Source: a virus
Virus record (IMG/VR): IMGVR_UViG_3300009184_005291
Span: 21,126-85,125 of that record
Direction: 5' to 3' (one strand)
DNA length: 64,000 bases
The notes beneath the pieces were generated by a model. That model ran no database searches. It was not told the DNA's origin and worked only from the letters and a program-made list of their open reading frames with translations. The stretch's first letter is position 1, and every line of letters starts with the position of its first letter. Positions 1 through 23,872 of this stretch are shown piece by piece. A program made the translations under genes and the position numbers.

Positions 1-279
1 CGGTTCAGGTAATCCTGTTAATAAGGTTGATTCCTCTTCCTTAACTGGTTTTGGGTTTTCATCCGGTTTAACCTCGGTCAATCCAAATCTAATATGTTTG
101 TACCAAACTCGTTCATGTATGTAATATTGAATTGGTTTCCATACTAATTCAATTATACTAAAGGCGGCTCCTATTTCTATGGAGTCGGTTACTAACCACA
201 TAGTAATAAATCCAATACTCGTACTCAAAATACGATATGATATGGTTTTTGCTAAGTGTCTTTTTGGTGAAACGGTCAT
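1..279 (-). CDS. DUF2061-like small membrane protein (3' end runs off the window)
   Basis: Translated by hand from ATG at 279: MTVSPKRHLAKTISYRILSTSIGFITMW...YYIHERVWYK. The KTISYR and YYxHERxW motifs are typical of DUF2061. Not in the ORF track because it is truncated. Confidence 0.7.
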   Translation of the reverse strand, partial: MTVSPKRHLAKTISYRILSTSIGFITMWLVTDSIEIGAAFSIIELVWKPIQYYIHERVWYKHIRFGLTEVKPDENPKPVKEEESTLLTGLPEP

Positions 280-320
280 GGAATTTGTATTAAAATTTAT
301 TATAAAATAATAGTATATTA

Positions 321-515
321 TTAACTATTATCAAAGTTAGTTTTGTTTAATTCTTTTATAGTAATTTCATTATGTTTCCACATTTTCCATGTGTTAAATT
401 CTTTGAGAGATTCTAAAGTTTTTTCATGAACCAAAACAAAACCTTCGGGAGCAACTCCACCAAACTTACGAACTTCACCTTCTTCTTCCAATATTTTTTT
501 TATGTTAACTAGCAT
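321..515 (-). CDS. hypothetical protein
   Basis: 64-aa ORF overlapping the end of the upstream gene in the same operon. Confidence 0.55.
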   Translation of the reverse strand: MLVNIKKILEEEGEVRKFGGVAPEGFVLVHEKTLESLKEFNTWKMWKHNEITIKELNKTNFDNS

Positions 516-1114
516 GATAAATATTTTATTATTTTTTCTTTTATTCCACTTTGTTTGATTCCTTCATCACATTGAGGAGTCCAAACAAAGTTCTCCAATC
601 CCCAATCTCTGTCGTATGGCCCATAATAACTCGCATCAACATGAGTACCCATATGAAGGTCATCAACTGCAACCCAATGTGTAACTTCGGGATGTGATTT
701 TAACCATTCTTTAATCTCAAAGTGTCTTTCTTGTTCTTGACCATCGGTCCTATTCCAATCAAAATCAGACGGAACACGACCTTCATCTAACCAATTTGTG
801 TAATGAAACACTTCGGTGAATCCGATTGGTTTTTTGATGATACCTTGAGATGTGTAGTATTCTCCCAACTCTTCCAATGTACCATGTAATCTCCAATCGG
901 AACTTACCACGATTTCAGCACCAGTGGTTTCCAATATTTGATTTAGGATTTTAACCGCCTTTACGTCAAAGTTATCGAAACGATACTCAACTGGTAATTG
1001 GTTATTATGGTCAAAGACTGGATTTTCACCTAATTTTTTTTGTTTTTTATGTCGGGAACCCCAGTTATTACTGAGACAAATTACCCCATCATTATCTAAG
1101 AATATTACTTTCAT
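509..1114 (-). CDS. HAD-family phosphatase (HAD_SAK_2 / RNA-repair Swiss-Army-knife type)
   Basis: Motif I IFLDNDGV, motif II VVSSDWR and motif IV WVAVDD. Start moved to the ATG at 1114 (MKVIFLD). Confidence 0.75.
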   Translation of the reverse strand: MKVIFLDNDGVICLSNNWGSRHKKQKKLGENPVFDHNNQLPVEYRFDNFDVKAVKILNQILETTGAEIVVSSDWRLHGTLEELGEYYTSQGIIKKPIGFTEVFHYTNWLDEGRVPSDFDWNRTDGQEQERHFEIKEWLKSHPEVTHWVAVDDLHMGTHVDASYYGPYDRDWGLENFVWTPQCDEGIKQSGIKEKIIKYLSC

Positions 1115-1115
1115 T

Positions 1116-1463
1116 TTATTTCCAAAATACTTGTACTGAAACAATTATGAATGCTAAAATTAAACAGATTATTGTCTTCGGAGTCATATTTTCTTGAAAC
1201 AAGGTAGATGACAAAATTGTGAATATGACAACACCTAAAGCAAATCCAATCAATCTGCTAGGCCAAATCTGACCTCCAAATCCTTGTACATAAAGATTAA
1301 CGGATTTGATGTAAAGGTAACTGATTGGAATACCTGATAGTAAGAGTAACCAAAGGTATTTCTCTGACCAACCATATTTGATTGACCCTTGTAGCTGTAT
1401 AAATGATCCTATTTGACCTAAAATCATTAACAGTGTCGCTAGTATTATTTTTGTGATATCCAT
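1116..1463 (-). CDS. small 4-TM membrane protein (DMT/SMR-like)
   Basis: 115 aa with four hydrophobic stretches. Confidence 0.55.
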   Translation of the reverse strand: MDITKIILATLLMILGQIGSFIQLQGSIKYGWSEKYLWLLLLSGIPISYLYIKSVNLYVQGFGGQIWPSRLIGFALGVVIFTILSSTLFQENMTPKTIICLILAFIIVSVQVFWK

Positions 1464-1474
1464 TTTGTAAAGAT

Positions 1475-1507
1475 AAAAAAAATCCCTTGAATATTCGAGG
1501 GATTTTT
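1475..1507. terminator. bidirectional intrinsic terminator
   Basis: AAAAATCCCTTGAA-TA-TTCGAGGGATTTTT hairpin flanked by A/T runs. Confidence 0.7.
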
Positions 1508-1952
1508 AATTTTTGATAAGGTTTATGATTTTTTTTATTTTCGTTTTATTTTCTCTGACACCTGCTTTGAGAGAAAGAATTTTTTCTACTTCGAATCGTA
1601 AAAGTTCTTTGGAATTTGTTGAGGACACTCCATGTTTGAGAACCTCTTCCACCCCATGGGATCTGTGATACGCATCCAAGTGAGTTGAGGACACTCCATG
1701 TTTGAGAACCTCTTCCACCCATTCCTCTATAACAGGTTCATATTCTTTCCGTTCCATGCCAAACAACGGAAAAAAATCATTGAAGAATGAGTATCTCCAC
1801 CATAGAACTCCCACACTTTTTAGTTCCAAATACCAATACTTATTTGCACGATCGATGAACCAAATCGAGTTATTATCATCCACAATGATTTCAGCCTGAC
1901 CTAAATCTTGGTCTAACTTTTTGAAAATGATTTTTTTAAGCCTTTCGTGCAT
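1506..1952 (-). CDS. hypothetical protein whose C-terminal part is encoded by a repeat-spacer-repeat unit
   Basis: 148-aa ORF. VEEVLKHGVSST occurs twice, separated by 10 unrelated residues, with a degenerate third copy VEKIL(SL)KAGV. Confidence 0.7.
   Translation of the reverse strand: MHERLKKIIFKKLDQDLGQAEIIVDDNNSIWFIDRANKYWYLELKSVGVLWWRYSFFNDFFPLFGMERKEYEPVIEEWVEEVLKHGVSSTHLDAYHRSHGVEEVLKHGVSSTNSKELLRFEVEKILSLKAGVRENKTKIKKIINLIKN
1618..1720. CRISPR. CRISPR-like mini-array (two identical 36-37 nt repeats, one 29-30 nt spacer) inside a CDS; no cas gene in the window
   Basis: GTTGAGGACACTCCATGTTTGAGAACCTCTTCCACC(C) is identical at 1618-1654 and 1684-1720 (period 66). The intervening sequence is CCATGGGATCTGTGATACGCATCCAAGTGA. 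The repeat is directly observed; its CRISPR identity is inference. Confidence 0.4.
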
Positions 1953-1974
1953 ATTGGTTGATGTCTATGTGATA

Positions 1975-1982
1975 CAAAAATA
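1975..1982 (-). promoter_or_regulatory. Bacteroidota-type -7 element (TAnnTTTG)
   Basis: TATTTTTG on the minus strand, 22 nt upstream of the ATG at 1952. Confidence 0.45.
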
Positions 1983-2031
1983 CTAATATTTTACGTAATT
2001 CAAAAATTAAGGTTTCCTTCGAAAGGGAATT

Positions 2032-2064
2032 AAAAAAAAAAGGGAGTCATTGACTCCCTTTTTT
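2032..2064 (-). terminator. intrinsic terminator downstream of tmRNA (bidirectional)
   Basis: A-run, GGGAGTCA-T-TGACTCCC inverted repeat, T-run, just past the tmRNA 3' end. Confidence 0.8.
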
Positions 2065-2072
2065 ATTGATTG

Positions 2073-2485
2073 TGGAGGTGCAGGTTACCGCCACCTGGTC
2101 TTACCCGCCATATCAAAAATGGACTACACGTTTAGGTCAAGGTTTGTGATACCTTCCGAAATAGATGGTTCCTATTTTGACATCGTTACCAACAACTGTG
2201 TCGAGTTCACTTGTAATAAGGTAGCCCTCTGAACGTGACCTTTGATACGCTTCGGGTGGTATCGCACCTTGGAGGGCTTCTGTTCCTAGGTTATATGCCC
2301 ATTCGACCTGACGTTGTATCTACTTATCAAGCAGTTACAACAGATGCTTCTCTAGTTAAACCTAAAGCAGACATCTTAGCAAGAGTATTGCCGTTTACTT
2401 TCTTCACCGTGGATTTAAGTCATAGATGAATTCTGACTACGTGCCCATTGATTATACAAACGTTAATCAATTCTATTTCACCCCC
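2073..2485 (-). ncRNA. ssrA: tmRNA (one-piece), tag peptide (A)GNTLAKMSALGLTREASVVTA
   Basis: 5' GGGGGTG pairs with 3' CACCTCC-A, giving the G3-U70 Ala determinant and discriminator A. T-arm is CAGGT-GGCGGTA-ACCTG. Helix 2 pairs ATGGGCACG with CGTGTAGTCCAT. Resume context is GTAAAC|GGC. Tag ORF is 2392-2327, ending TGA TAA. CCA is not encoded. Confidence 0.9.
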
Positions 2486-2494
2486 ATTGTTGTA

Positions 2495-2525
2495 CAAATG
2501 TAAGTATAAATATCTCCAAATCCAA
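2495..2525 (-). promoter_or_regulatory. Bacteroidota sigma70-type promoter of ssrA with nested TATTTAT motif
   Basis: TTG (2525-2523), N20, TACATTTG (2502-2495), ending 9 nt before tmRNA G1. TATTTAT lies at 2512-2506. Confidence 0.6.
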
Positions 2526-2546
2526 CCGAATTGATATTTATTTCAT

Positions 2547-3593
2547 ATGATAAGTTTAGAAACATTTGTTGCTCTGAGAAATTACGTCAAAGGAAAAATT
2601 GACGCTCATCAACTTATGGATGCAGACAAATTGTTTGATTCGATTAAAGAGAATTATAGATATCCTGCTGAAAGTATTATTCGTATTGACTTCAGAAACA
2701 AAGAAGATCTTCTCAAAACCTTGGGATTAGCGGATGACGATATATATTTTTATTTTGATGTGACAAGTCCTTATAATAGTTATGAGTTCATAGATCATTA
2801 CTCCGCTATAGAAGAGTTCAAAGATGGGTATGGATTTTACAATTATTTAGATGAAGAAAATAAATATACCTTGTCTCAAATATCTCGTGCGATTTTACCA
2901 AAAAAAGTTGACTTTGGAGATGATGAATTTTTACAAGAATTATCCGCAGTTTTATTACAAAACTTCAAACAAGAAACTGAAGATATAATTGATGAATACG
3001 CGGCCGAGAAAAATTATCAAATGAACCGAGAGGCATATAAAGTTGTAGAAAAGGAATTACAGGATTACACTGATTCATTAGCATTTGAGGTCACCGATTC
3101 GGGATTAAGAATTAGTGTTGGTCAACTAATACAACTTTATTTGATGGAGAATGCAATTCATATACCATTAAAAAAATTGCTTGAAAAAGTTTTTGAATCT
3201 AACAAACAATATTTTGGATGGTCTGATGATATCTACGAATACGCCAATGATGACGATTTTGATTCGGTAAGTTTTAATAAATATGCTGGAAGAATATTAG
3301 ATAATATTTTAGACAGAATCGTAGACGCTGGAGAAGAATTGGGAGTAGACATAAATGACTTTACCTCCATGACGGCAAGAATCGAAAAAAAGTTCAAAGC
3401 TGGAGAATGGTATTTTTTACCAAAAGACAAGACCAAACAGACTAGATTCAAAGTGGAGGGATTTGAATTTCCTAATATGAAAATATCGGTATTATTACAA
3501 AAAGGATTGAAAGAAAAAAAAGTATCATTATCAGAACAAAATTTTTATAATTTATTATATCAACCATCATTATTCAGTTTGGATGAAATCTAA
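2547..3593 (+). CDS. hypothetical protein (acidic, 348 aa)
   Basis: Long ORF preceded by TATTTAT-N5-ATG; no recognised motif. Confidence 0.7.
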   Translation: MISLETFVALRNYVKGKIDAHQLMDADKLFDSIKENYRYPAESIIRIDFRNKEDLLKTLGLADDDIYFYFDVTSPYNSYEFIDHYSAIEEFKDGYGFYNYLDEENKYTLSQISRAILPKKVDFGDDEFLQELSAVLLQNFKQETEDIIDEYAAEKNYQMNREAYKVVEKELQDYTDSLAFEVTDSGLRISVGQLIQLYLMENAIHIPLKKLLEKVFESNKQYFGWSDDIYEYANDDDFDSVSFNKYAGRILDNILDRIVDAGEELGVDINDFTSMTARIEKKFKAGEWYFLPKDKTKQTRFKVEGFEFPNMKISVLLQKGLKEKKVSLSEQNFYNLLYQPSLFSLDEI

Positions 3594-3613
3594 TTTATTT
3601 GTATCTTTATAAG

Positions 3614-4447
3614 ATGAACGATATAAATTTGCTCAAAGAAGTTTTGAGCGTACCTACAAAAACTAATCAAGAACATCGGATGGTTGAATTTTTGGTTAAT
3701 TGGTTAACTGAAAACAACATTGAACATTATGTCGATGACAAAATGAATGTCTATGCTACCAAGCAAGAGACATCTGATATTCCTGAAGATTTTTATTTTC
3801 CTTGTGTAATTTCACACACTGATACTGTCCACCACATAGATACAATTAACATCAGAGAAATGATGTTGGAAAATGCTCAAGGAGAACTTAAACCTTCTTT
3901 GAAAGCATTCAACGATATAGATTTGCCTACAGGTATTGGAGGAGATGATAAATGTGGTGTATTTGCTTGTTTAACTTTATTAAAGGAATTACCAAATCTT
4001 AAAGCAGCATTCTTTGTTTCAGAAGAAACTGGATGTCACGGATCTCGTGCTGCAGATTCTAAATTTTTCGAAAATGTTGGATATGGTATTCAGTTTGATG
4101 CTCCTGAAAATTGGATGATTACTGAAAAATGTTTTGGACAAGTATTATTCGACAGAGAAACAGAATTTTTTGAAAAAATTGATAAGGTTTTGACTGAGGG
4201 TATGGATAATGATAGAATGCAATATATGGTTCATCCGTACACAGATGTTTATGCTTTGAGAAGTAAATTTGACTTTTCTTGTATCAATTTTTCTATTGGT
4301 TATTATGATTACCATACTCCGAACGAATACGTAGTAATCGAAGATGTATTCAACGGAATAGAAATGGGTAGAAAAATGATTGAAGAATTAGGATATAAGT
4401 TACATTTCAAAAAATCAGTCCCTAAAGGACAGTGGCATCCATTTTAA
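3614..4447 (+). CDS. M20/M28/M42-family zinc peptidase
   Basis: Metal-ligand motifs SHTDTV, GGDDKCG, SEETG and YHTPNE. Start moved to the ATG at 3614. Confidence 0.85.
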   Translation: MNDINLLKEVLSVPTKTNQEHRMVEFLVNWLTENNIEHYVDDKMNVYATKQETSDIPEDFYFPCVISHTDTVHHIDTINIREMMLENAQGELKPSLKAFNDIDLPTGIGGDDKCGVFACLTLLKELPNLKAAFFVSEETGCHGSRAADSKFFENVGYGIQFDAPENWMITEKCFGQVLFDRETEFFEKIDKVLTEGMDNDRMQYMVHPYTDVYALRSKFDFSCINFSIGYYDYHTPNEYVVIEDVFNGIEMGRKMIEELGYKLHFKKSVPKGQWHPF

Positions 4448-5056
4448 TTAGATAAAATCCTCTAACTTATCTATGTGTCTTTTAACAATCGGGTGGTCTT
4501 GAATATCTTCATATTGACCTCCCGATTTTTTTATTTGTTTAATGTCGTTTATAATTTGTTGGATACCTCCACGAACCATTTTGGACATCGAAGGATATTG
4601 TTGTACGTAAGGAGAAAGAGAAAATAATTTTTTCGCGATTTCTATTGGTATATTTAACTCGATTACGATTTTTGCCACCATATTTTTAGCAAACGCATCC
4701 GCATCCAATTCCATTTCCCAATATTGTTTATATAGTGCCTCAAAATCTTCTAAGTCGAAATCAGTTAGTGGATTGAGCATTTTCAAATCTCTCATTTGTT
4801 CTTCGTGCCTGAGTTCGTGAAATATGGTATACAGGAAATCTCCGATAGTCTCCATTTGTATTGGAGAACATATAATTACTTGGTCACGAGTTCTCACTCC
4901 TTTGAATCCCGACGAACAAGAGTTCAAAAATTTTACGTTAATCTCATTATCTCGAATATAGTTTACGACAAAGTTTTCGATTGCATCAACTTTGGATTCT
5001 AATTCTGATGGGAAAGAATTTTTGAACTTTTCTAATAGTCTGGAAAAATTACTCAT
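4448..5056 (-). CDS. putative zincin metallopeptidase (ImmA/IrrE-like)
   Basis: HELRH (HExxH) followed downstream by ELDADAFA (ExxA-D-x-F-A). Confidence 0.6.
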   Translation of the reverse strand: MSNFSRLLEKFKNSFPSELESKVDAIENFVVNYIRDNEINVKFLNSCSSGFKGVRTRDQVIICSPIQMETIGDFLYTIFHELRHEEQMRDLKMLNPLTDFDLEDFEALYKQYWEMELDADAFAKNMVAKIVIELNIPIEIAKKLFSLSPYVQQYPSMSKMVRGGIQQIINDIKQIKKSGGQYEDIQDHPIVKRHIDKLEDFI

Positions 5057-5068
5057 AATTATAAATAT

Positions 5069-5096
5069 AAAAAAAGGGGGAATTATCCCCCTTTTT
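5069..5096 (-). terminator. intrinsic terminator after clpC
   Basis: AAAAAGGGGGA-ATTA-TCCCCCTTTTT. Confidence 0.8.
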
Positions 5097-5099
5097 AAT

Positions 5100-7115
5100 T
5101 TACCGTCCTTTCTTGACTACTTTGACTACTTCATCTTCGACTTTAATCACATAGGTTTTACCTGGTATGATTTTGTCGGTCAGAACTTCTTCAGATAATA
5201 AGTCTTCAACCTTATCTTGAATCGCTCTCTTGAGTGGTCTAGCACCGTATACCTCATCATATCCGATTTTTGATAGGTAATTCAAAAGTGATTCATCGTA
5301 AGTAATCTTATACTTCATTTCTTCAAGACGCTTCATCAACTTTTTAAGTTCGATGTCGGTGATTTTCTTAATGTCATCTTGTGATAGAGAATTGAAAACG
5401 ATAGTATCATCGATACGATTGATGAATTCAGGAGAGAAGAAATTTTTCATTTCTTTCATCAAGATTTCCTTCTTCGCTTCTTCGTTACTATAGGTATTGT
5501 TGGAGAATCCAATACCAGTTCCAAAGTCTTGTAATTTCTTCACACCAAGATTTGAGGTCAAGATGATAAGGGTATTCTTGAAGTTAATCTTTCTACCCAA
5601 ACTATCTGTAACGTGACCATCGTCCAAGATTTGAAGTAATACTGTAAACACATCTTTGTGAGCTTTTTCAACCTCATCAAACAAGATGACAGAGTAAGGT
5701 TTATTCTTAACCTTTTCGGTCAACAATCCACCTTCTTCGTATCCAACATAGCCTGGAGGTGCCCCAACCAATTTGGATACGGTGTGTTTTTCTTGATATT
5801 CGGACATATCAACACGGATTAACGAATCTTCACTACCGAACATTTCTTTCGCTAGTTGTTTCGCTAAGTGAGTTTTACCAACACCTGTGGAACCCAAGAA
5901 TACGAACGAACCAATTGGACGATTTGGATCTTTGATACCAAGTCGATTTCTCTTGATGGATTTTGCGACCTTGATTACCGCAGCATCTTGACCAATTACG
6001 GTTCCAACAATATGTTTGTCCAAATTGATAAGTGCTTTAGTATCGTCAACCGACATTCTGCTCACAGGGATTTTAGTCATGTTTGATACCACATCATAAA
6101 CATCCTCCAAGGTAATCTTTTGTTTGTCTTTGGACATTTGTTCTTCAAACTTTTGTTTTTCTTGTTCCAATTTGTCCAACAACTTTTTCTCTTTGTCTCT
6201 TAGATGTGCCGCTTGTTCGTAATTCTGTTTCTTAACAACATCCATTTTCTGTTGTTTAAGTTCTGCAGCTTTACGTTTCAAGTCTTCAATCGCTTCAGGA
6301 ACTTTAAGTTCAGTCTGCATCTTAGCTCCAACTTCATCCAAAATGTCGAATGCTTTGTCAGGAAATTCACGGTCGGTAATATATCTGTCCGCCAACTTCA
6401 CACAAGTTTCGATTACTTCATTTGAATAAATTACCTTGTGGTATGTTTCGTATTTATCTCGAACGTTATTCAAAATTTGAATTGTTTCTGCTACGGTAGA
6501 AGGTTCCACAATCACTTTCTGAAATCTACGCTCCAACGCTCCATCTTTTTCAATGTGTTTTCTGAACTCATCCAAAGTTGTTGCACCGATTACTTGAATT
6601 TCACCACGAGATAATGCCGGTTTGAAGATGTTGGAACCATCCATAGTTCCTGATGAATTACCTGAACCAACTAAAGTATGAATTTCATCGATGAACACGA
6701 TAATGTTCGGGTTCGCCTGAAGTTCTTCAATGATTACTTTCATTCTTTCCTCGAATTGACCACGGTATTTTGTACCGGCAACAACTGAAGTCAAGTCCAA
6801 ATTCACAAGTCGTTTATCCAACAAATTACGTGGACATTCACCATTCACAATTTTCATTGCTAAACCTTCAGCAATAGCGGTCTTACCACAACCAGGTTCT
6901 CCGATAATGATTGGGTTATTCTTTTTTCTTCGTGAAAGAATCTGAGCAATTCTTAGGATTTCTCTATCCCTTCCGATTACGGGATCTAGCTTACCTTCTT
7001 CGGCAAGTTTATTCAAATCTCTACTGAAATTGTCTAGTACAGGAGTCGAGCTGTCCGCAGCGGACTTCTGTTTTTTACTCATCATTTTGTCTTCGTCGTC
7101 CATTAAGTCGTTCAT
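5100..7115 (-). CDS. clpC: ClpC-like Hsp100/Clp ATPase lacking the N-terminal Clp_N domain
   Basis: Walker A motifs GEPGCGKT and GSTGVGKT, Walker B motifs FIDEIH and LFDEVEK, pore loops KYRG and GYVG, a UVR-like middle domain (QNYEQAAHLRD) and a ClpP-docking IGF loop (GIGF). Confidence 0.92.
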   Translation of the reverse strand: MNDLMDDEDKMMSKKQKSAADSSTPVLDNFSRDLNKLAEEGKLDPVIGRDREILRIAQILSRRKKNNPIIIGEPGCGKTAIAEGLAMKIVNGECPRNLLDKRLVNLDLTSVVAGTKYRGQFEERMKVIIEELQANPNIIVFIDEIHTLVGSGNSSGTMDGSNIFKPALSRGEIQVIGATTLDEFRKHIEKDGALERRFQKVIVEPSTVAETIQILNNVRDKYETYHKVIYSNEVIETCVKLADRYITDREFPDKAFDILDEVGAKMQTELKVPEAIEDLKRKAAELKQQKMDVVKKQNYEQAAHLRDKEKKLLDKLEQEKQKFEEQMSKDKQKITLEDVYDVVSNMTKIPVSRMSVDDTKALINLDKHIVGTVIGQDAAVIKVAKSIKRNRLGIKDPNRPIGSFVFLGSTGVGKTHLAKQLAKEMFGSEDSLIRVDMSEYQEKHTVSKLVGAPPGYVGYEEGGLLTEKVKNKPYSVILFDEVEKAHKDVFTVLLQILDDGHVTDSLGRKINFKNTLIILTSNLGVKKLQDFGTGIGFSNNTYSNEEAKKEILMKEMKNFFSPEFINRIDDTIVFNSLSQDDIKKITDIELKKLMKRLEEMKYKITYDESLLNYLSKIGYDEVYGARPLKRAIQDKVEDLLSEEVLTDKIIPGKTYVIKVEDEVVKVVKKGR

Positions 7116-7170
7116 AATGTTTTTTAGTTTTTACAAAGTAATAACAAATTTAGTTCTTATCCAAATGATT

Positions 7171-7225
7171 TGACAAATTGTCAGAAATATTTATTTTTAT
7201 TAAATCTTTTTCTGACATAATGTCA
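7171..7225. promoter_or_regulatory. pair of palindromic operators TGACA-N3-TGTCA
   Basis: TGACAAATTGTCA (7171-7183) and TGACATAATGTCA (7213-7225), 42 bp apart, in the divergent clpC/UVR intergenic region. Confidence 0.6.
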
Positions 7226-7237
7226 TATAAAAACCAT

Positions 7238-7252
7238 CGGCATAAATCTTGA
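7238..7252 (+). promoter_or_regulatory. sigma54-like -24/-12 element
   Basis: CGGCATAAATCTTGA, i.e. GG-N10-GA, compared with the consensus TGGCAC-N5-TTGC. It lies 41 nt upstream of the UVR gene. Confidence 0.4.
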
Positions 7253-7254
7253 AA

Positions 7255-7262
7255 CAAAGATA
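7255..7262 (-). promoter_or_regulatory. Bacteroidota-type -7 element facing clpC
   Basis: TATCTTTG on the minus strand. Confidence 0.4.
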
Positions 7263-7293
7263 ACAAATAAACTTAAAATAAAAAACTAAAATT

Positions 7294-7665
7294 ATGTTTG
7301 GTAACAGAAGATCGTATAACGACATTTTTAGAGCATTCGATGAAATGTTCACACAATTAACCCCAAATAACGGTGAGTGGAAAACTCAAAGTAAAGTTTC
7401 AGAAGATGGAACAATGAAAATAACTACGTATTACTACGACAACGCTAAAACAAACCCAACTTCAAAAAATCTGAAACAACAACTTGAAATCGCAATTGAA
7501 AATGAAGATTTTGAAAAAGCGGTTGAACTAAGAGACCAAATCAAGAAATTGGATATCAATCAAAAGGAAATCAACAAACTTGAAGAGGAACTCAAAAAAT
7601 CAATCGAACAACAAAACTTTGAAAAATCAATTGAGATTCGAGACCAACTCAAAAAACTAAAGTAA
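7294..7665 (+). CDS. double UVR (UvrB/UvrC motif) domain protein, putative ClpC adaptor
   Basis: Two copies of the UVR motif (AIENEDFEKAVELRDQI and SIEQQNFEKSIEIRDQL); divergent from clpC. Confidence 0.75.
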   Translation: MFGNRRSYNDIFRAFDEMFTQLTPNNGEWKTQSKVSEDGTMKITTYYYDNAKTNPTSKNLKQQLEIAIENEDFEKAVELRDQIKKLDINQKEINKLEEELKKSIEQQNFEKSIEIRDQLKKLK

Positions 7666-7668
7666 AAT

Positions 7669-7700
7669 AATCCCCACTCAAAAGGTGGGGATTTTTATTT
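7669..7700 (+). terminator. intrinsic terminator
   Basis: AATCCCCAC-TCAAAAG-GTGGGGATT followed by a T-run. Confidence 0.75.
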
Positions 7701-7744
7701 TATATTGATTATCATACATAAAAAGTTTTATAATATTTATATTT

Positions 7745-8077
7745 ATGAAACCATTCGAAAGATATCTAACTCACTTAACCGACTTAAGAAAATTTTTGGA
7801 CACATATTTGGAAATGAGACAATATTTCCAAGAATTAGATTTTTCTGAAAAGGACATGGAAAGTCCTCCAATGTATACTGAAAAAATGTTTTTATATCAT
7901 GAGAGATTAAATCGGCTCCATACTGACGTATTAAAACAAGTTAATGATTTTGGGTTTGATGTTTCTGAAGAAGAATTTGATGATTTTATAGTACCACGAC
8001 TGAAAAAGATAAACGAACTAATACCCCTTAAAGATGGCAATAGTAAAAGAACAGATATTGGGAACGAAGATTATTAA
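7745..8077 (+). CDS. hypothetical protein
   Basis: 110-aa ORF preceded by TATTTAT-N4-ATG. Confidence 0.6.
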   Translation: MKPFERYLTHLTDLRKFLDTYLEMRQYFQELDFSEKDMESPPMYTEKMFLYHERLNRLHTDVLKQVNDFGFDVSEEEFDDFIVPRLKKINELIPLKDGNSKRTDIGNEDY

Positions 8078-8287: not shown

Positions 8288-9031
8288 ATGAATAACTTCC
8301 AAAAAATTCTTAATAGTTTTTCAGTACAGGAAACTCTCAACCCAAAAATTTGGCAGAATCCTGATGACCCTCAGAAATCAAAAATGATTCCTAAGGTGAA
8401 AAACGCATTGATGAGAATTGCGGAAGAATTTATTGAATATCTTGGAGAAGAAGTCTTTGTTGAAGATATTGTTTTGACTGGTTCATTAGCAAATTTTAAT
8501 TGGTCTGAGTATTCAGATTTTGATTTACACATTATTGTTGATTTTCAACAATTCGAAGATGAGTCACCATTATATAAAGAACTATATAATCTAAAGAAAC
8601 AAGTATTCAACGACAAACACGATATCAAAATATTTGGATATGATGTTGAACTCTATGCTCAAGATAACGAGGAACCACATTTTGCAACAGGTGTCTATTC
8701 TGTGATGAACGATGAATGGGTGACAAAACCTAAAAAGTTAGAAAATGAAATCGACAAAGCAGTTTTGGAGAAGAAAATCAAAAACTGGACAGAAAAAATA
8801 GACAAAGTAATTGAGACCGATGAACCTGAAGATGATAAAAAGTTAATCGATTCAATTAAAGATAAATTGAAAGATTATAGAAAATCTGGATTAGAAAAGG
8901 AGGGGGAGCTCTCATATGAAAACTTGGTTTTTAAGTTTTTAAGAAGGTCAGGGCATATTCAAAAATTATTTGATATTTCGAATAAAGCTCTCGATAAAGA
9001 GCTTTCTATCGAGAGAAAAATAGAAGACTGA
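8288..9031 (+). CDS. Pol-beta superfamily nucleotidyltransferase
   Basis: hhhTGS...SDFDLH catalytic motif (LTGSLANFNWSEYSDFDLHIIVD) plus a third acidic residue in VELY. Confidence 0.75.
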   Translation: MNNFQKILNSFSVQETLNPKIWQNPDDPQKSKMIPKVKNALMRIAEEFIEYLGEEVFVEDIVLTGSLANFNWSEYSDFDLHIIVDFQQFEDESPLYKELYNLKKQVFNDKHDIKIFGYDVELYAQDNEEPHFATGVYSVMNDEWVTKPKKLENEIDKAVLEKKIKNWTEKIDKVIETDEPEDDKKLIDSIKDKLKDYRKSGLEKEGELSYENLVFKFLRRSGHIQKLFDISNKALDKELSIERKIED

Positions 9032-14320: not shown

Positions 14321-16081
14321 GTGAACAAAGAACAATTAATTATAGAATATACGAAGTGTATGAGGAGTACTCCTTATGCACTTCGTTCTTATTTACAGAC
14401 ATACGATAATACAGTATCAAAGTATGTCCCATTAGAACTTTTTCCTGACCAAGTTTCACTACTTGAAGATTACGAAAGCTACAACGAAAACATTGCATTA
14501 AAATACAGACAAGCGGGGGTTTCAACTGTAACCGCGGCTTGGGCGTCAAAAAAACTTGCGTTTGCAAGAAAGGAAAAACCTGAAAAAGTTCTAATCATCG
14601 CCAACAAGTTGGATACTTCTGTGGAAATGGCCAACAAAATAAGGGCATTTATTGAACAATGGCCTGATTGGGTTGATATAAGATTCTCTGTGGAAAAAAA
14701 CTCCCAAAGACATTTCAAACTAAATAATGGATGTGAAGTTAAAGCGGTGGCAACATCCAAAGATGCTCTTAGAGGTTATACACCAACAATTCTTATTTTT
14801 GACGAAGCCGCCTTTATCGAGGCAGATGGAGACTTTTGGTCTGCTTGTATGGCTTCACTATCCACGGGTGGTAAAGTTATTGTAGTTTCCACACCAAACG
14901 GTTACGACCCAATCTATTATGAAATATATGACCAAGCATTAAGAGGAATGAATGATTTCAAAATCTCTGAAATGTTTTGGTATCGAGACCCTCGTTATAC
15001 CAAAGATTTGTACATGGTAAAGACAAATGATTTGGTTCATTATCTTTTGAATCGAGAAGATTATCCAATAGATACCGTAATTAACTTATCCAATAATAAT
15101 CCTTATGATAGAGACCATACTATTGTAACAGATTATATTTCCCAAGGATATAAACCTTGTTCTGCATGGTTTGAGGGAATGGTAAAAAAGCTCAAGTACG
15201 ATAGACGTAAAGTTGCTCAAGAACTTGAATGTAACTTCTTAGGATCGGGTGATAACGTATTCGATTCAGATCTAATGCAGAACATTTCCAAAAACCAATT
15301 AAGACCTCCACAAGCTAAACTTATGGGTAACGCTCTGTGGATTTTTAAGGAACCTGTAAATGGACATAAATATGTTATGGGGGTTGACGTTTCTCGTGGT
15401 GACTCTGAGGATTTTTCATCAATCCAAATTATTGATTTTGATGAACGGGAACAAGTATTAGAATATGTTGGTAAAATCCCTCCCGATGTTTTAGCAGAAA
15501 TTGCTTATAAGTGGGGGACAATGTACAATGCATTCTGTGTAATTGATATTACAGGAGGTATGGGAGTTTCAACCGCCAGAAAAATGCAAGAATTACAATA
15601 TCAACCCGGATTGTATGTTGATGGAGTCGATACTTCTAACAAATGGAAGTGGGACCCGAAAATAAATGAAAAAATTCCTGGTATCAACTTCAACACAAAA
15701 AGAGTTCAAATTATAGCCGCATTTGAAGAGGGGGTTAGACACGGATTTAAGATATATTCACATAGAACGTATAATGAGATGAATACCTTTGTATATATTC
15801 ATGGAAGACCTGATCACCAAAAAGGACAACATGATGATTGTATCATGGGTCTTTCCATGGCAATTTATGTTGCAGAGAAGTCATTTCAGTCATTAACAAA
15901 AGTTGTTAACCACACAAAAGCCATGTTGAATTCGTGGTCTACTGTGATGAATGAAAATAAAAATACTTCAGATTTTTTTAATCCATTGGTACCTCAGATG
16001 GGAAGAGACTCCAACTTGAGTAATAATGGGGCATCCAAAGCGGATTACCAAAAATATGGTTGGTTATTTGGTGCTAAATAA
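14321..16081 (+). CDS. terL: terminase large subunit (T4 gp17-like)
   Basis: Walker A KYRQAGVST, Walker B LIFDEAAF, coupling motif VSTPNG, nuclease motif GVDVSRG and C-terminal HDDCIM. GTG start. Confidence 0.93.
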   Translation: MNKEQLIIEYTKCMRSTPYALRSYLQTYDNTVSKYVPLELFPDQVSLLEDYESYNENIALKYRQAGVSTVTAAWASKKLAFARKEKPEKVLIIANKLDTSVEMANKIRAFIEQWPDWVDIRFSVEKNSQRHFKLNNGCEVKAVATSKDALRGYTPTILIFDEAAFIEADGDFWSACMASLSTGGKVIVVSTPNGYDPIYYEIYDQALRGMNDFKISEMFWYRDPRYTKDLYMVKTNDLVHYLLNREDYPIDTVINLSNNNPYDRDHTIVTDYISQGYKPCSAWFEGMVKKLKYDRRKVAQELECNFLGSGDNVFDSDLMQNISKNQLRPPQAKLMGNALWIFKEPVNGHKYVMGVDVSRGDSEDFSSIQIIDFDEREQVLEYVGKIPPDVLAEIAYKWGTMYNAFCVIDITGGMGVSTARKMQELQYQPGLYVDGVDTSNKWKWDPKINEKIPGINFNTKRVQIIAAFEEGVRHGFKIYSHRTYNEMNTFVYIHGRPDHQKGQHDDCIMGLSMAIYVAEKSFQSLTKVVNHTKAMLNSWSTVMNENKNTSDFFNPLVPQMGRDSNLSNNGASKADYQKYGWLFGAK

Positions 16082-16117: not shown

Positions 16118-17962
16118 ATGGCAGAACAAAATATGACGGTTTGGCAAAGACTGTCACAAACATTTGGACCTAACTCATTATTAAATCAAGACTATCCAAC
16201 ATTCAAGTTTGATAAAAAGGAACTCCTACGCACAAAAAGTAGAGAGGAGTATGAGAAAGAAAAACTTCAAGCACAACAAACATATTATCTTACCAATCAG
16301 TGGTCTAAGGTTGAAAATAACCTTTATTCTCAGGCGATTTATTATGAACCTACAAGGTTATCTGCTCAGTATGACTACGAATCAATGGAATACACTCCTG
16401 AGATTTCCGCAGCATTAGACATTTATGCCGAAGAGTCAACTACAACAAATGAGGACGGTTTCATATTACAAATTTATTCAGAATCTAAAAGAATTAAGGG
16501 AGTTCTTGCCGATTTATTTAACAATGCTTTAGACATCAACACCAATTTACCTATGTGGACAAGAAACACATGTAAATATGGTGATAACTTTGTATATCTG
16601 AAATTAGACCCTGAAAAAGGAATTGTTGGGGTACAACAATTACCGACTATTGAAATTGAAAGACATGAGGTTGGAGCAAGTGGTAAAATATCTGTCGATG
16701 TAAAAAATGAAGTAGATAAAGATAAAAAGGCGTTACACTTCACATGGAAAAATAAAAATATGGAATTCCAATCTTGGGAAATTGCTCACTTCAGATTATT
16801 AGGTGATGACAGAAAACTTCCATATGGAACTTCCATGTTAGAAAAAGCAAGACGTATTTGGAAACAACTTTTACTATCAGAAGATGCGATGTTAATTTAT
16901 CGTACATCAAGAGCCCCTGAGAGAAGAATGTTCAAAGTATTCGTTGGAAACATGAATGATGACGATGTTGAGGCTTATGTACAACGTGTTGCCAACAAGT
17001 TCAAAAGAGAACAAATTGTTGATAGTAAAACAGGTAACGTAGATATGAGATTCAATCAAATGGCGGTTGACCAAGATTATTTTATTCCTGTAAGAGACCC
17101 CGCAGCGCCAGACCCAATCTCAACATTACCTGGAGCAACTAACTTATCTGAAATTGCCGATATTGAATATATCCAAAAGAAATTGTTAACCGCCCTCCGA
17201 GTACCAAAGGCTTTCTTAGGATTTGAAGAAGTTGTTGGTGATGGTAAAAATTTGGCGTTACAAGATATACGATTTGCTCGTACCATCAACAGAATTCAAA
17301 AGAGTATGATTGCCGAATTGAATAAAATTGCAATTGTACATTTATTTTTATTAGGATTTGAAGACGAACTTTCAAATTTCACAATTGGATTAACAAATCC
17401 ATCTACTCAAGCGGATTTACTTAAAATTGATGTTTGGAAAGAGAAAGTATTATTGTATAAAGATTTGGTTTCTGATCCAGGAAATGGAATTCAGGCAACT
17501 TCATCTACATGGGCTAAGAAGCATATTTTTGGATGGTCAGATGACGAAGTTCGTTTGGACTTACAACAACAAAGAATTGAAAGAGCCGTTGGAGAAGAAT
17601 TAAAAGCGACTCCAACTGTTATAACAAAAACTGGATTGTTTGATAATATTGACAAATTATATGGTAGCCAAACAGGGTCAACACCAACGGCAGGAGCTTC
17701 TACGACAATGGACGGAGGAGAGGAATTAGGATCTCCACCATCATTTGGAGGAGGTGGTGGTGAGATACCTGGAGGAGAACCCGAGTTACCTCCAGCAGGT
17801 GAAGCTCCTCCCGCCGAAATAACACCAGAATCAAGGAAAAAAGATCTAAATATTTTAGTGGAAAATAATTTAATTGAAGGGTCTCGAATAATAAATTTGG
17901 GTCAGGGACAAGATTCTTTAGGAGAAATTTCAAAACACTTAGATAAGTTATTAAATTCATAA
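16118..17962 (+). CDS. portal protein (T4 gp20-like)
   Basis: LSEDAMLIYRTSRAPERRMF, DYFIPVR, ISTLPG and ALRVP motifs; follows terminase. Confidence 0.93.
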   Translation: MAEQNMTVWQRLSQTFGPNSLLNQDYPTFKFDKKELLRTKSREEYEKEKLQAQQTYYLTNQWSKVENNLYSQAIYYEPTRLSAQYDYESMEYTPEISAALDIYAEESTTTNEDGFILQIYSESKRIKGVLADLFNNALDINTNLPMWTRNTCKYGDNFVYLKLDPEKGIVGVQQLPTIEIERHEVGASGKISVDVKNEVDKDKKALHFTWKNKNMEFQSWEIAHFRLLGDDRKLPYGTSMLEKARRIWKQLLLSEDAMLIYRTSRAPERRMFKVFVGNMNDDDVEAYVQRVANKFKREQIVDSKTGNVDMRFNQMAVDQDYFIPVRDPAAPDPISTLPGATNLSEIADIEYIQKKLLTALRVPKAFLGFEEVVGDGKNLALQDIRFARTINRIQKSMIAELNKIAIVHLFLLGFEDELSNFTIGLTNPSTQADLLKIDVWKEKVLLYKDLVSDPGNGIQATSSTWAKKHIFGWSDDEVRLDLQQQRIERAVGEELKATPTVITKTGLFDNIDKLYGSQTGSTPTAGASTTMDGGEELGSPPSFGGGGGEIPGGEPELPPAGEAPPAEITPESRKKDLNILVENNLIEGSRIINLGQGQDSLGEISKHLDKLLNS

Positions 17963-20497: not shown

Positions 20498-22036
20498 ATG
20501 CAAGAAAATAAAAACTTAGTACAGGAGGCGTTAATTCAAATGAAAAATGTTGAAGAAGCTATCGCCCAGAACGCAAAAGGAATACTTGCTTCTACTATGA
20601 AGGAAGAAATCAACCAATTAGTAAAAGAATCTCTATCAGAACAAGACATGGAAGATGAGGTTGAATTAGATACAGACATCGAAATGGATGAACCTGTTGA
20701 TAATGAAGATGATATGGAAATGGACATGGAATTTGACATGGACATGGATATGGATTCAGAAGAAAGTCCAATAGATTTGACTGACGCTTCTGACGAAGAA
20801 ATTCTGAAGGTGTTCAAGGCCATGGGTGAAGAAGATGGCATCATCGTAAAAAAAGATGGTGAAGATATTCACTTAACCGATAATGACACCGATTCTGAAT
20901 ACTTAGTTAAGCTTGGTGAGTCTGAAGAAGACGAAGAAGAATTAGACGAAACAATGCACATGGATGAAATGGATGACATGGATCTTGACACAGAAGATGT
21001 TATCAATGCAATTTTCTCTAAAGATGGCGATGTTGAAGACATCGACATGGAGGATGAAGAAGTTATGTACGAAATTGAATTTAACGAAGAAGATGATGAC
21101 ATGATGGAACAAGAAGATGATGACATGATGGAAGAAGAAGATGACGACATGATGGAAGAAGAAGATTTGGACGAATCTTACAACCACAGAAGATCTGTTA
21201 GAGAAGGTAAATCGACAGTAAAACCTAAGGGTGTTGGAATTGGGTCTGGACCAAAATTCACTTACAAAGATAAAGCTAAAGGCGGATTCGATGAAAAGAA
21301 GAAAGAAGGACCAAAATCAGTTGGTACTGGTAAACCAAAATTCGAATACAAGAAAGGTGAAAATATGGAACAAAAATCCAAAGTTGTTAAGGCAGAAACA
21401 AAAGAAGGTCAAGGATACAAAGACAAAGAGGATGAAAGATTGGCAATGAAACATGGTAAAATTGCTTCAAAAGATCTTAAAACTACTAAGGCTCGTAGAG
21501 ATGACGCAGGTTTTGAAAAAAGAGAAACCAAAGAGGCGGCTAGAACTTATGGAATGGGTTCAAAAGAAGGACGAGGACTAAGAAAAGGTATTACTAATAA
21601 CAGAAATTATGTTTATGGTAAAAACGGAGTAAAAGTTGAATCCACAGAATCAGAAGTTAATGTGTTGAGAGAAAAGAATGAAGAGTACAGAAAAGCATTA
21701 AATATTTTCAGAGAAAAACTTAATGAAGTTGCTATCTTCAACTCAAACTTGGCATATGCTACAAGATTGTTCACTGAACATTCGACCACTAAAAAAGAGA
21801 AAATTAATATTCTTAGAAGATTCGATAATGTAGATACTTTGAAAGAATCTAAAAATCTTTATAGGTCAATTAAAGATGAATTGTCTAAAACTGAAAGTAC
21901 ACCAATTAACGAATCAGTAGAAGCTAAATTAAACAAGAATGTTTCTACAGGTTCATCAACTACCCTAATTGAATCAAAAACTTATGAGAATCCTCAATTC
22001 TTAAGAATGAAAGATTTGATGAGTAAAATTGGGTAA
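20498..22036 (+). CDS. prohead scaffolding/core protein (gp22-like position)
   Basis: Highly acidic centre and coiled-coil C-terminus (LNEVAIFNSNLAY); immediately precedes the major capsid gene. Confidence 0.75.
   Translation: MQENKNLVQEALIQMKNVEEAIAQNAKGILASTMKEEINQLVKESLSEQDMEDEVELDTDIEMDEPVDNEDDMEMDMEFDMDMDMDSEESPIDLTDASDEEILKVFKAMGEEDGIIVKKDGEDIHLTDNDTDSEYLVKLGESEEDEEELDETMHMDEMDDMDLDTEDVINAIFSKDGDVEDIDMEDEEVMYEIEFNEEDDDMMEQEDDDMMEEEDDDMMEEEDLDESYNHRRSVREGKSTVKPKGVGIGSGPKFTYKDKAKGGFDEKKKEGPKSVGTGKPKFEYKKGENMEQKSKVVKAETKEGQGYKDKEDERLAMKHGKIASKDLKTTKARRDDAGFEKRETKEAARTYGMGSKEGRGLRKGITNNRNYVYGKNGVKVESTESEVNVLREKNEEYRKALNIFREKLNEVAIFNSNLAYATRLFTEHSTTKKEKINILRRFDNVDTLKESKNLYRSIKDELSKTESTPINESVEAKLNKNVSTGSSTTLIESKTYENPQFLRMKDLMSKIG
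21086..21166 (+). repeat. 24-nt tandem repeat encoding E-E-D-D-D-M-M-E
   Basis: gaagaagatgatgacatgatg-type unit, three copies. Confidence 0.7.
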
Positions 22037-22078: not shown

Positions 22079-23872
22079 ATGGGAGCATTATTAGAATCAG
22101 GTCTTGTAGGTAACATCGGTCTTAAGCACCTTAAAGTTATCAAAGAAGACACAATCAACAAATGGGACAAATTAGGATTCTTAGAGGGTCTTAAGGGTCA
22201 CATGAGAGAGAACGTAGCTCAACTTTATGAAAACCAAGCTTCTCACTTAATCAACGAAGCATCATCTACATCTGATACAGGTGCATTTGAGACAGTGGTT
22301 TTCCCTATCGTTAGAAGAGTTTTCTCTAAATTATTAGCAAACGATATCGTTTCAGTACAAGCAATGAACTTACCAATCGGTAAATTATTCTACTTCGTAC
22401 CTAACATCCAATCTTATGAGAATGGACAGAATCAACACTGGGCTCCTTACGGATCACCAAACGCTGCGGCTGACCAAACTCCTAATTCAGGATATGATTA
22501 CAACTTAACTAAAGACCTTTACGATAGATTCTACGAAGGTAACGAACCAGCGTTGGATCCACCAGGTTTATTCGACTATTCAAAAGGACAGTTTTCAGCG
22601 ATTACTGCTGACGTTACAACTGTAGCATGGGCTGGAAGCAACTTGATTCCTTCAGCGTATACTCTTTCTGATTACAGAAAAGTATTGATAGTTATGTCAG
22701 GTTTTGCTTCTGATGGAGCAGGTAAGTTAATTGGTCCTGATGGTCAACCAATGGATAACGAAGCATTCTTATCTGATTTGACTGTTTATGGTTCAGCTGG
22801 TAACGTTTACACTTCAGCTAACACATCAAACCCTTACTTATTCAGAGTTGTAACTCAGAGATATGGTAAAGGTATTGTAGAATATGGTAATAACAACCAA
22901 ACGTTGGTATTCCCTAACAGTAAGACAGATGGTGGTCAGTTTGACAACGTTTGTGACGCTGAAGGTAAAATCTACTTAGAAGTTGATTTACAAGTACCAG
23001 TATGTATCACTTGCGGTGGTTCATTAGATGGTTACACTGGTTCAACATTCGCGTCAACAATCGCAACTAACTCTCAAGCATTCTCAGCAACTTATAGAAT
23101 CTATAAGAACTTGGAATTCGAAGACAGAATTGGTGAAGTTTCTTTTGACCTTATGTCAGTAACAGTTTCTGTAACTGAAAGAAAATTAAGAGCTCAGTGG
23201 TCTCCAGAAATGGCTCAGGACGTTGCGGCATTCCACAACATCGACGCTGAAGCTGAATTAACAGCATTGTTATCTGAGCAAGTTGCTGCTGAAATCGATA
23301 GAGAAATCTTGAGAGACCTTAGAAAAGCTGCAGCTTGGAACTTAAGATGGGATTACAATGGATGGAAGAGATTAGGTTCTTCTGCAGTACCTTATACTCA
23401 GAAAGACTGGAACCAAACTCTTATCACAGCAATCAACCAAATTTCTGCACAAATCCACAAGTCAACATTGAGAGGTGGAGCTAACTGGATCGTTGTTTCT
23501 TCTGAAATCAGTGCTATCTTTGATGACTTGGAATACTTCCACGTATCAAACGCAGCTCCTGAGCAGGATCAGTACAACATGGGTATTGAAAGAGTTGGTA
23601 CATTAGCAGGTCGTTACCAAGTGTATAGAGACCCTTACTTCCCACCTAACCAAGTGTTGATGGGTCACAAAGGAACTTCTCTATTGGACACAGGTTACAT
23701 CTACGCACCGTATGTACCTCTACAATTAACTCCTACAATGTACAATCCGTTTAACTTTACTCCGATTAAGGGTATTATGACGAGATACGCTAAGAAAGTT
23801 GTCAACAATCGCTTTTACGGACGAATTACAGTTGATGGTGTTAGAACATTTGACTTGAGAGAATTGAGATAA
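22079..23872 (+). CDS. major capsid protein (T4 gp23-like)
   Basis: VSVQAMNLPIG, RKLRAQWSPEMAQD, IDAEAEL, EIDREI, GYIYAPYVPL and FTPIKGIMTRY motifs. Confidence 0.95.
   Translation: MGALLESGLVGNIGLKHLKVIKEDTINKWDKLGFLEGLKGHMRENVAQLYENQASHLINEASSTSDTGAFETVVFPIVRRVFSKLLANDIVSVQAMNLPIGKLFYFVPNIQSYENGQNQHWAPYGSPNAAADQTPNSGYDYNLTKDLYDRFYEGNEPALDPPGLFDYSKGQFSAITADVTTVAWAGSNLIPSAYTLSDYRKVLIVMSGFASDGAGKLIGPDGQPMDNEAFLSDLTVYGSAGNVYTSANTSNPYLFRVVTQRYGKGIVEYGNNNQTLVFPNSKTDGGQFDNVCDAEGKIYLEVDLQVPVCITCGGSLDGYTGSTFASTIATNSQAFSATYRIYKNLEFEDRIGEVSFDLMSVTVSVTERKLRAQWSPEMAQDVAAFHNIDAEAELTALLSEQVAAEIDREILRDLRKAAAWNLRWDYNGWKRLGSSAVPYTQKDWNQTLITAINQISAQIHKSTLRGGANWIVVSSEISAIFDDLEYFHVSNAAPEQDQYNMGIERVGTLAGRYQVYRDPYFPPNQVLMGHKGTSLLDTGYIYAPYVPLQLTPTMYNPFNFTPIKGIMTRYAKKVVNNRFYGRITVDGVRTFDLRELR

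Follow-up and report, generated by a model that had tools for sequence, protein, structure and literature searches.

A Cas-less CRISPR-type array that probably serves as the translated 3' part of a phage gene family

A gene of a very large lake phage was found to consist of a conserved N-terminal part followed by an array of repeats and spacer-like inserts that is read in frame as protein. We consider it probable, at roughly 60%, that a Cas-less CRISPR-type array has been co-opted in this phage gene family and now forms its coding 3' part. The gene lies in a stretch of 64,000 nucleotides (the window) that covers positions 21,126 to 85,125 of the viral record IMGVR_UViG_3300009184_005291 in IMG/VR; CheckV gave a completeness of 28% for the 85-kb record. 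A large terminase subunit, a portal, a major head protein and a ClpC-like ATPase are encoded in the window, and this gene set points to a very large tailed (jumbo) phage as the source. The first-pass annotation of the locus had offered two interpretations, a guide or RNA anti-CRISPR mini-array and a system in which spacer-style insertions diversify the end of a protein; the protein-diversifying array was upheld, the guide or RNA anti-CRISPR was not. The features of the gene are listed in Table 1.

Table 1. Coordinates of the 148-aa gene, its parts and the adjoining hairpin in the window
Feature	Position	Strand	Basis or remark
Whole gene, 148 aa: N-domain, translated array and basic tail	1506..1952	-	ORF list
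Conserved N-domain, ~78 aa, W/F/Y-rich	1720..1952	-	invariant columns in two alignments
Repeat 1, 36 nt in DNA register, adjoins N-domain	1684..1719	-	identical to repeat 2
Full insert, 30 nt, peptide HLDAYHRSHG	1654..1683	-	the window's one full insert
Repeat 2, 36 nt	1618..1653	-	repeat search
Old insert, 27 nt, NSKELLRFE	1591..1617	-	common to most close homologs
Worn far-end repeat, VEKILSLKAGVR	1555..1590	-	15/36 bases as in repeat 2
Basic C-terminal tail and stop codon	1506..1554	-	...KAGVRExKxKxKKI... kept in close homologs
Hairpin, 13 bp, terminator-like	1478..1507	.	abuts stop codon of the 148-aa ORF

A repeat search confirmed that two identical repeats of 36-37 nt with a period of 66 enclose a 30-nt insert: the 37-nt copies at 1618-1654 and 1684-1720 are 100% identical, and their start-to-start distance is 66 nt. 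All units lie in the frame of the minus-strand ORF, as had been stated, and its translation reads N-terminal part, W VEEVLKHGVSST HLDAYHRSHG VEEVLKHGVSST NSKELLRFE VEKILSLKAGVR, basic tail. The decayed third copy noticed 27 nt further on matches the repeat at only 15/36 bases; comparison with homologs identified it as the decayed far-end repeat of the family. No further copy was present in the 85-kb record when up to 3 mismatches were allowed. The extreme C-terminus of close homologs is variable at a run of A. The N-domain stands where the 'leader' of an array would be, and the window holds a minimal state, with one young unit between identical repeats followed by an old insert and a worn repeat. 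The sister contig (L004/L112) departs from the window in exactly one extra 66-nt unit, located at the N-domain junction; around the shared insert, the repeats of the window and those of L004 belong to different subtypes.

A tmRNA-like gene with its own terminator is located directly upstream of the 148-aa ORF, and two peptidase-like genes lie within 3.5 kb of it in the window. In an RNA sequencing run, coverage was restricted to 2081-2200, which corresponds to the neighbouring tmRNA. Logan contigs assembled from reads stop at the 37-nt repeat, as is expected of any assembler; in one of them (run X4), positions 1506-1684 are replaced by 224 other letters representing another allele. Across 53 loci, neither a constant neighbour gene family nor a large conserved neighbour gene was found, the next commonest family being present in 20/53.

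Homologs of the protein were numerous. A word-index search yielded 619 at E<=0.01, and a full HMMER scan gave 430 clusters at 50% identity. Their lengths increase in steps of about 22 aa (127, 148/149, 170/171, 192-194, 215/216, 238/239 and 259), and their common architecture is a W/F/Y-rich domain of ~78 aa followed by 1 to 10 or more units, each consisting of a 12-residue motif and an insert of ~10 residues. Collection of homologs of the N-terminal ~80 aa thus bore out the expectation of constant repeats with variable in-frame inserts. Related phages often carry two to four array genes in tandem and also encode array-less paralogs of the N-domain. In distant members the inserts come in many lengths and are conserved at the protein level, and distant relatives keep the 12-residue motif despite differing DNA. 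Pfam, PHROG, NCBIfam and PADLOC contained no family for the window protein or its distant relatives, and no DNA or protein relative was detected among INPHARED phages; the ESM Atlas contains the window protein and gave no usable match. We found no description of translated repeat-spacer arrays in the literature, and the supplementary array lists of PMC7162821 may include some; the family is not mentioned in the passages located in PMC10392669, which deals with repeat proteins.

Translation of the arrays was analyzed in two sets. An ORF-blind DNA pattern fetched 57 arrays at 35 loci, several of which are near-copies. All 346/346 repeat seeds of these arrays lie in one frame, with spacings that are without exception multiples of three (66 in 258 cases, 72 in 9, 132 in 18, and four others). 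The reading frame is stop-free up to the last seed in 56/57 arrays; in 55/57 the array continues the frame of a preceding N-domain motif, and a contig end truncates the remaining 2. The other set comprised 63 protein-found loci, with those repeating the same contig or ending before the array omitted. In-frame stops occurred in 0/149 distinct inserts, as compared to 42-74/149 in each of the other five frames. A collection of 348 distinct inserts from 114 distinct genes likewise contained no in-frame stop and only lengths that are multiples of 3, namely 30 nt for 330 inserts and 24, 27, 33 or 36 nt for the rest. A chance ORF was rejected as an explanation: inserts are stop-free only in the gene frame, and all seeds share one frame.

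Alleles of the same insert were compared in 25 families. They differ by 25 synonymous and 25 non-synonymous changes, compared with an expected synonymous share of 0.225 (p=2e-5), a value that ignores transition bias, which would raise the expectation somewhat. By codon position, 27 events fell on the third position and 11 and 12 on the others. The synonymous excess therefore indicates that the encoded peptide matters once an insert is in place, and the pattern of changes points to purifying selection on the peptides of placed inserts.

The inserts themselves resemble spacers. Nearest-neighbour identity of the 330 inserts of 30 nt was 26-29/30 in 61 and <=19/30 in 269, and 20-25/30 in none. It had been proposed that inserts alignable to each other would speak against a spacer-like origin; they cannot be aligned to each other. 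Their GC content is 45% and flat over codon positions, that of the flanks and the genome 32%. Residue entropy at insert positions 1-9 is near-maximal (4.06-4.22 bits), and no hydrophobic pattern is apparent.

Polarity was studied in 168 regular arrays with at least 3 inserts. Here and in the array counts many close relatives are included, so that the values describe patterns and not numbers of independent events: the first insert, on the N-domain side, recurs in a median of 2 other arrays and the last insert in a median of 34; in 107 arrays the last insert is the more widely shared of the two, in 14 the less widely shared. In pairs of arrays sharing at least 2 inserts, insert order is kept in 2696 and broken in 28. 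Identity to repeat 1, which is 0.925 at unit 2, has dropped to 0.685 by unit 8; 83/88 arrays show a negative trend. Identical neighbouring repeats are most frequent at the same end (36/102 for pair 1-2, 15/102 for 2-3, 6/89 for 3-4, 5/74 for 4-5, and 0 beyond). The same first insert also heads arrays with different followers. Recombination clearly acts on the arrays, and it could produce part of the polarity. Two general properties of CRISPR arrays are thus found here: constant repeats with unique, near-constant spacers occur in both the window and the family, and polarised growth is seen at the family level; in the window, repeats 1 and 2 are identical and the third is worn.

Further evidence concerns a unit that is defined at the DNA level. 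Over 399 units, conservation begins with the final base of the preceding insert (G, 90%) and continues through base 35 of the repeat; the wobble position of the last repeat codon varies as freely as the insert does. These bounds place the 36+30 register one base off the codons; therefore, the last residue of the insert is biased to L/E/K/Q/R. Among 105 gene sequences, the first three codons of the repeat are frozen (GTG in 100/104, GAA in 98/102 and GAG in 90/90), whereas synonymous codons are used freely for conserved residues of the N-domain in the same genes. Protein selection alone is no sufficient explanation for the frozen codons. Synonymous variation of the kind typical of protein-level conservation had been named as an argument against a CRISPR-like repeat; the repeat has less of it, not more, than the rest of the gene. 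Simple tandem duplication was rejected, as only 36 of each 66 nt are repeated.

The origin of the inserts was searched for in bacterial genomes. A host-like gene beside the L094 arrays led to genome G159, a member of the sampled class Bacteroidia, and the follow-up search was made in the 191 genomes belonging to that order. In an L094 array, the first insert, which lies between identical repeats, matched G476 and G497 at 27/30 positions; this match spans exactly the insert and is located within a 313-aa ORF of both genomes. The reversed pattern of this insert, used as control, gave 0 matches in the 191 genomes. An insert of L100/L101 matched a Glu/Leu/Phe/Val dehydrogenase gene of G462, also at 27/30 and exactly over the insert, and the L079 allele of this insert is two changes further from the G462 sequence. 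Both matches have the sense of the bacterial gene, and CAAT is present at +6 to +9 downstream of both (n=2 in each case). Of about 67 inserts tested on the 191 genomes, only these 2 reached 27/30 and none was exact; by chance, fewer than 0.01 such matches are expected for ~67 inserts and ~1e9 positions with equal base frequencies, a figure that skewed composition raises. A third match (25/30) is palindromic and not significant alone. The two matches in sister arrays lend some support to the capture of bacterial DNA.

Other searches were negative. None of the 22 L064 inserts matched at 24/30 or better in these genomes. The window's 30-nt insert had 0 matches in the 191 Bacteroidia-order genomes with up to 3 mismatches, and in IMG/VR it was found only as an exact match in the sister array L112; the first-pass annotation had suggested comparing this insert (1654-1683) with phage and host DNA, and no protospacer emerged from these two sources. 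When the L094 arrays were compared with 401 sampled Bacteroidia genomes, the strong matches fell on the host-like phage gene, with none limited to an insert. A protospacer search of 712 kb of related phage DNA was negative, the best match being equal to that of the shuffled control (34.2 bits). Two arrays (L025, and L103 in part) had no protospacer in 50,697 cultured-phage records; the cultured-phage matches of L103, whose arrays the query covered only partly, fall in a neighbouring gene shared with cyanophages.

We also looked for CRISPR components. Cas1 (PF01867) was found in 0/5 large related phage records, 2 of them complete, the control being positive in 7/14 genomes, and reverse transcriptase (RVT_1) was likewise found in 0/5 related phage records. 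The hairpin that had been read into the repeat was not recovered: folding was no better than for shuffles on the two strands (z -0.11 and -0.14; 83 and 85 of 200 shuffles equal), and an RNAalifold consensus of 76 distinct first repeats was unpaired on both strands. Comparison with CRISPR repeat collections was equally unproductive, with no match to an Rfam CRISPR repeat family at E<=10. A narrow pattern for a bacterial array with the window's repeat start found none in 185,579 species represented by one genome each; the two-repeat pattern gave 13 matches in those genomes, all to unrelated acidic repeats. In the 191 genomes, a narrow repeat-end pattern gave 3 single chance matches and no array. 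Genome G462 contains Cas1 and an array of 47-nt repeats beginning with GTTGTG and separated by 30-nt spacers.

Repeats of type VI-B are defined by GTTG...CAAC ends that pair and by an internal hairpin. The 36-nt repeat and 30-nt spacer of this type are present in the window. Read as mRNA, the window repeat has the ends GGTG...CAAC; in antisense, the phage repeat starts with GTTG in the window and GTTGT in the family consensus, and this end is far from the growing end. Pairing ends and a hairpin are absent from the window repeat. The proposed resemblance to type VI-B thus holds for the 36+30 geometry and the GTTG end, but fails for the pairing ends, the hairpin and the Rfam match. CRISPR arrays proper are non-coding and processed into crRNAs, whereas the present array forms an open frame on which selection acts at the protein level. 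The repeat of an RNA anti-CRISPR equals that of a host CRISPR; with narrow patterns, no such match was obtained among the genomes searched.

A mechanism can be proposed from these observations. An integrase that measures length would add units at the junction of N-domain and repeat and thereby duplicate the first repeat. This integrase would most simply be host Cas1-Cas2 acting in trans, and we infer that it would also recognise the repeat. At least some inserts would be pieces of bacterial chromosomes. Selection would retain only stop-free units, for which about 6 in 10 random 30-mers would qualify, and recombination between repeats would delete and reshuffle units. In its widest form the proposal is that lake jumbo phages of Bacteroidia write proteins by CRISPR adaptation, in which captured 30-nt DNA together with a fresh repeat becomes a new 10-residue cassette that is then subjected to selection as peptide; the integrase would be that of the host or an unknown one of the phage, and the repeat would be dual-coded. 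We put this forward tentatively, at a little short of even odds. The part of it that concerns the product was anticipated in the first-pass annotation, and the homolog arrays bear it out: spacer-style, frame-preserving insertions diversify the C-terminus behind a part of ~80 aa.

The arrays might instead encode an ordinary hypervariable protein with tandem repeats of 22 residues, perhaps distantly LRR-like, with a variable half under diversifying selection and with cassettes that are only shuffled, lost or exchanged between co-infecting phages by recombination at the repeats; there would then be no machinery devoted to insertion, and the bacterial matches would be due to chance. The family profile does match the 22-residue FNIP/FGxxFN LRR protein Crov588 (6nyr) with E=2.5e-17 and with the repeat register kept, but a Pfam FNIP match is missing, and the inserts have no hydrophobic pattern where an LRR requires its FGxxFN core. 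Recombination is evident, and the inserts of distant members are protein-like, of many lengths and conserved between homologs. An ordinary repeat protein would, however, leave several properties of the close relatives unaccounted for, namely the bimodal insert similarity with nothing between, the exact length of 30 nt in 330/348 inserts, insert bounds one base off the codons with wobble frozen only at the repeat start, a GC content of 45% even at third positions in a genome of 32%, and the youngest, identical repeats at one end. The absence of Cas1 and RT from the five related phage records fits such a protein, as does a window insert that has no source in IMG/VR or the 191 genomes; the two insert-confined 27/30 matches with their clean control do not. 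We regard this explanation as unlikely.

Less probable still is a working RNA element that would operate with host Cas proteins, as a guide array or as an RNA anti-CRISPR mimicking a repeat, and whose translation would be incidental or would keep the transcript whole. Its 36+30 geometry and the antisense repeat end GTTG/GTTGT recall the leader-distal motif of Bacteroidota II-C and VI-B repeats given in the available sections of PMC8092290, huge phages carry compact Cas-less arrays with some spacers to host chromosomes according to the part of PMC7162821 at hand, and two inserts resemble bacterial genes. Both of these bacterial matches are in gene sense, and the phage mRNA could therefore not pair with the mRNAs of the matched genes (n=2). 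Insert alleles vary mainly at third positions (27 versus 11 and 12), which fits a peptide and not base pairing; furthermore, 348 inserts are stop-free and change length only in threes, and distant relatives retain the 12-residue motif although their DNA is different. The mini-array first envisaged, acting as guide RNA or RNA anti-CRISPR, also finds no counterpart in a conserved fold or hairpin, in an Rfam repeat family at E<=10 or in an array with the phage repeat among the bacterial genomes searched. A multi-core peptide precursor resembling cyanobactins and other multi-core RiPPs, with the N-domain as leader, the 12-residue motifs as recognition sites and the 10-mers excised, appears highly improbable. 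A leader-like conserved part, constant flanks, hypervariable 10-mers and the two peptidase-like genes nearby would suit it, but there is no constant neighbour family in the 53 loci (next commonest 20), insert entropy is near-maximal with no shared residues for a modifying enzyme, and both the DNA-level register and the polarity would be left unexplained. A diversity-generating retroelement was rejected, there being no RT in the five related phage records.

If the co-opted array indeed grows by CRISPR adaptation, it would join retroelement mutagenesis and cassette gene conversion as a third way of diversifying proteins in a targeted manner. Spacer capture would then be more than guide memory and would add peptide modules in one step, and this would bear on the origin of coding sequence, on the role of Cas-less arrays in huge phages and on the exploitation of host adaptation machinery by phages. 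The case also carries a warning: 36+30 arrays in phage contigs can be called either CRISPR or repeat protein, and here each label is correct in part. Because arrays differ between samples of the same lakes, the system can be tested.

Diversity-generating retroelements act by adenine-specific substitution. The present arrays resemble them in that diversification is directed at the C-terminal region of a phage protein, but variation here occurs by whole 30-nt units, and no RT is present in five related records. The likeness to Crov588 of Cafeteria roenbergensis virus is confined to period and motif: xENVLPxSLTxL aligns with VEEVLNxKVSTT of the family, and both have a period of 22 residues. In FNIP/FGxxFN LRR proteins, the FGxxFN core forms a phenylalanine spine, as described in the accessible part of PMC9525666; in the alignment, this core of Crov588 falls on the unconstrained inserts of the family (4.06-4.22 bits). 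Pfam FNIP gave no match at E<=0.1 or E<=1, and of the 22-residue repeat with its conserved LxxLxFGxxFN core only the period is found. The likeness thus appears to be that of a short periodic motif and not of membership, and it may be due to chance.

Phage RNA anti-CRISPRs or solitary repeat units are, in the sections available of PMC10651486, phage-borne CRISPR repeats lacking cas genes that mimic the host repeat and act as RNA. The present arrays share with them the phage-borne repeats without cas genes; they differ in that no matching host repeat was found and that the signal of selection is at the protein level.

Another parallel is the type VI-B (Cas13b) array of Flavobacterium columnare, which, according to the part of PMC8092290 available, has 36-bp repeats and no adaptation genes of its own, receives its spacers, many of them chromosomal, at the leader end from type II-C Cas1-Cas2 acting in trans, and is transcribed from the leader into the array; GTTGT is described there as a leader-distal motif common to Bacteroidota II-C and VI-B repeats. 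The phage arrays likewise have 36-nt repeats, apparent growth at the leader-side end with no Cas1 in the five relatives searched, and transcription from the leader into the array. One candidate source genome, G462, which encodes Cas1 and has an array of long repeats separated by 30-nt spacers, corresponds to the F. columnare setting. In contrast, the present arrays are located in phages and apparently not beside cas13b, a protein domain is encoded where their leader would be, and they are translated; the window repeat ends in GTTGA instead of GTTGT, and no host array with the phage repeat was found.

A phage counterpart is provided by the compact arrays of huge phages, which, in the portion of PMC7162821 at hand, have a median of six repeats and no Cas1, Cas2 or Cas4; some of their spacers match bacterial chromosomes, and the authors suggest use of host Cas proteins. 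The present family shares with them a short, apparently Cas-less array in a jumbo phage. In that portion of the source the huge-phage arrays are treated as non-coding guides, whereas the arrays described here are fused in frame to a protein domain, are free of stops and show selection on the peptide.

The window contains genes for the large terminase subunit, the portal and the major head protein, which confirm that it belongs to a tailed phage. Among the neighbors of the array gene, those encoding the HAD_SAK_2 domain protein, the M20/M42-like peptidase, the metallopeptidase-like protein and the ClpC-like protein were not constantly found beside arrays in other phages.

Features in the window and at other loci
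Feature	Location	Strand	Remark
HAD_SAK_2 domain protein	window 509-1144	-	array-gene neighbor
Terminator hairpin	window 2036-2064		strong; near tmRNA-like gene
tmRNA-like gene	window 2070-2485	-	immediately upstream of array gene; Rfam match
M20/M42-like peptidase	window 3599-4447	+	array-gene neighbor
Metallopeptidase-like protein	window 4448-5056	-	weak likeness; array-gene neighbor
ClpC-like ATP-dependent protease ATPase	window 5100-7115	-	phrog_4871; array-gene neighbor
Large terminase subunit	window 14321-16081	+
Portal	window 16118-17962	+
Major head protein	window 22079-23872	+
Second small multi-copy protein family, example	L111:7911-8606		19 further loci
Bacterial CRISPR array, genome G462	L151:7687-8971		17 units; 47-nt repeats, 30-nt spacers

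The Rfam match of the tmRNA-like gene spans the full model length with E = 2.9e-13, its score of 37.6 bits lying below the gathering score of 47; no tmRNA was called when window positions 1-8000 were analyzed with ARAGORN.

In related phages, array genes often have near them members of another family of small proteins that is present in multiple copies (70 members, median length 112 aa, at 20 of 53 loci); its sequence pattern is loosely reminiscent of the N-domain of the array protein. Another gene near arrays (L103:3865-3968) matched genes of T4-like cyanophages along a stretch of about 100 nt, with 78-82% identical DNA; in those phages the counterparts encode hypothetical or virion proteins (Synechococcus phages Bellamy, S-CAM22 and S-SCSM1).

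A phage gene located beside arrays on the reverse strand of locus L094 (2067-2814) showed 67-74% DNA identity to genes in many Bacteroidia genomes, with the best match in G159 (E = 1.5e-108). This sequence likeness hints at a Bacteroidia host and a host-derived origin of the gene. An N-domain homolog was found at about 2603-2783 on the short contig C70 of the bacterial MAG G488 (L136/L142), sharing 76-82% DNA identity with three phage loci; this contig probably derives from a phage and was placed in the bacterial bin.

Array ends are evidently fragile. Some arrays terminate abnormally: at L039/L040 an array is joined to unrelated sequence after a shared insert, and at L021 a frameshift in an A run alters the tail.

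Directly after both bacterial stretches that match sister-array inserts (L140:1501-1530 and L147:1500-1529), A-A-x-A-x-C-A-A-T was found in phage-gene sense; with n = 2, this may reflect either a motif used in acquisition or coincidence. The CRISPR array of G462, the candidate source genome of one of these matches, carries an identical spacer in two adjacent units (L151:8687-8763 and 8764-8840).
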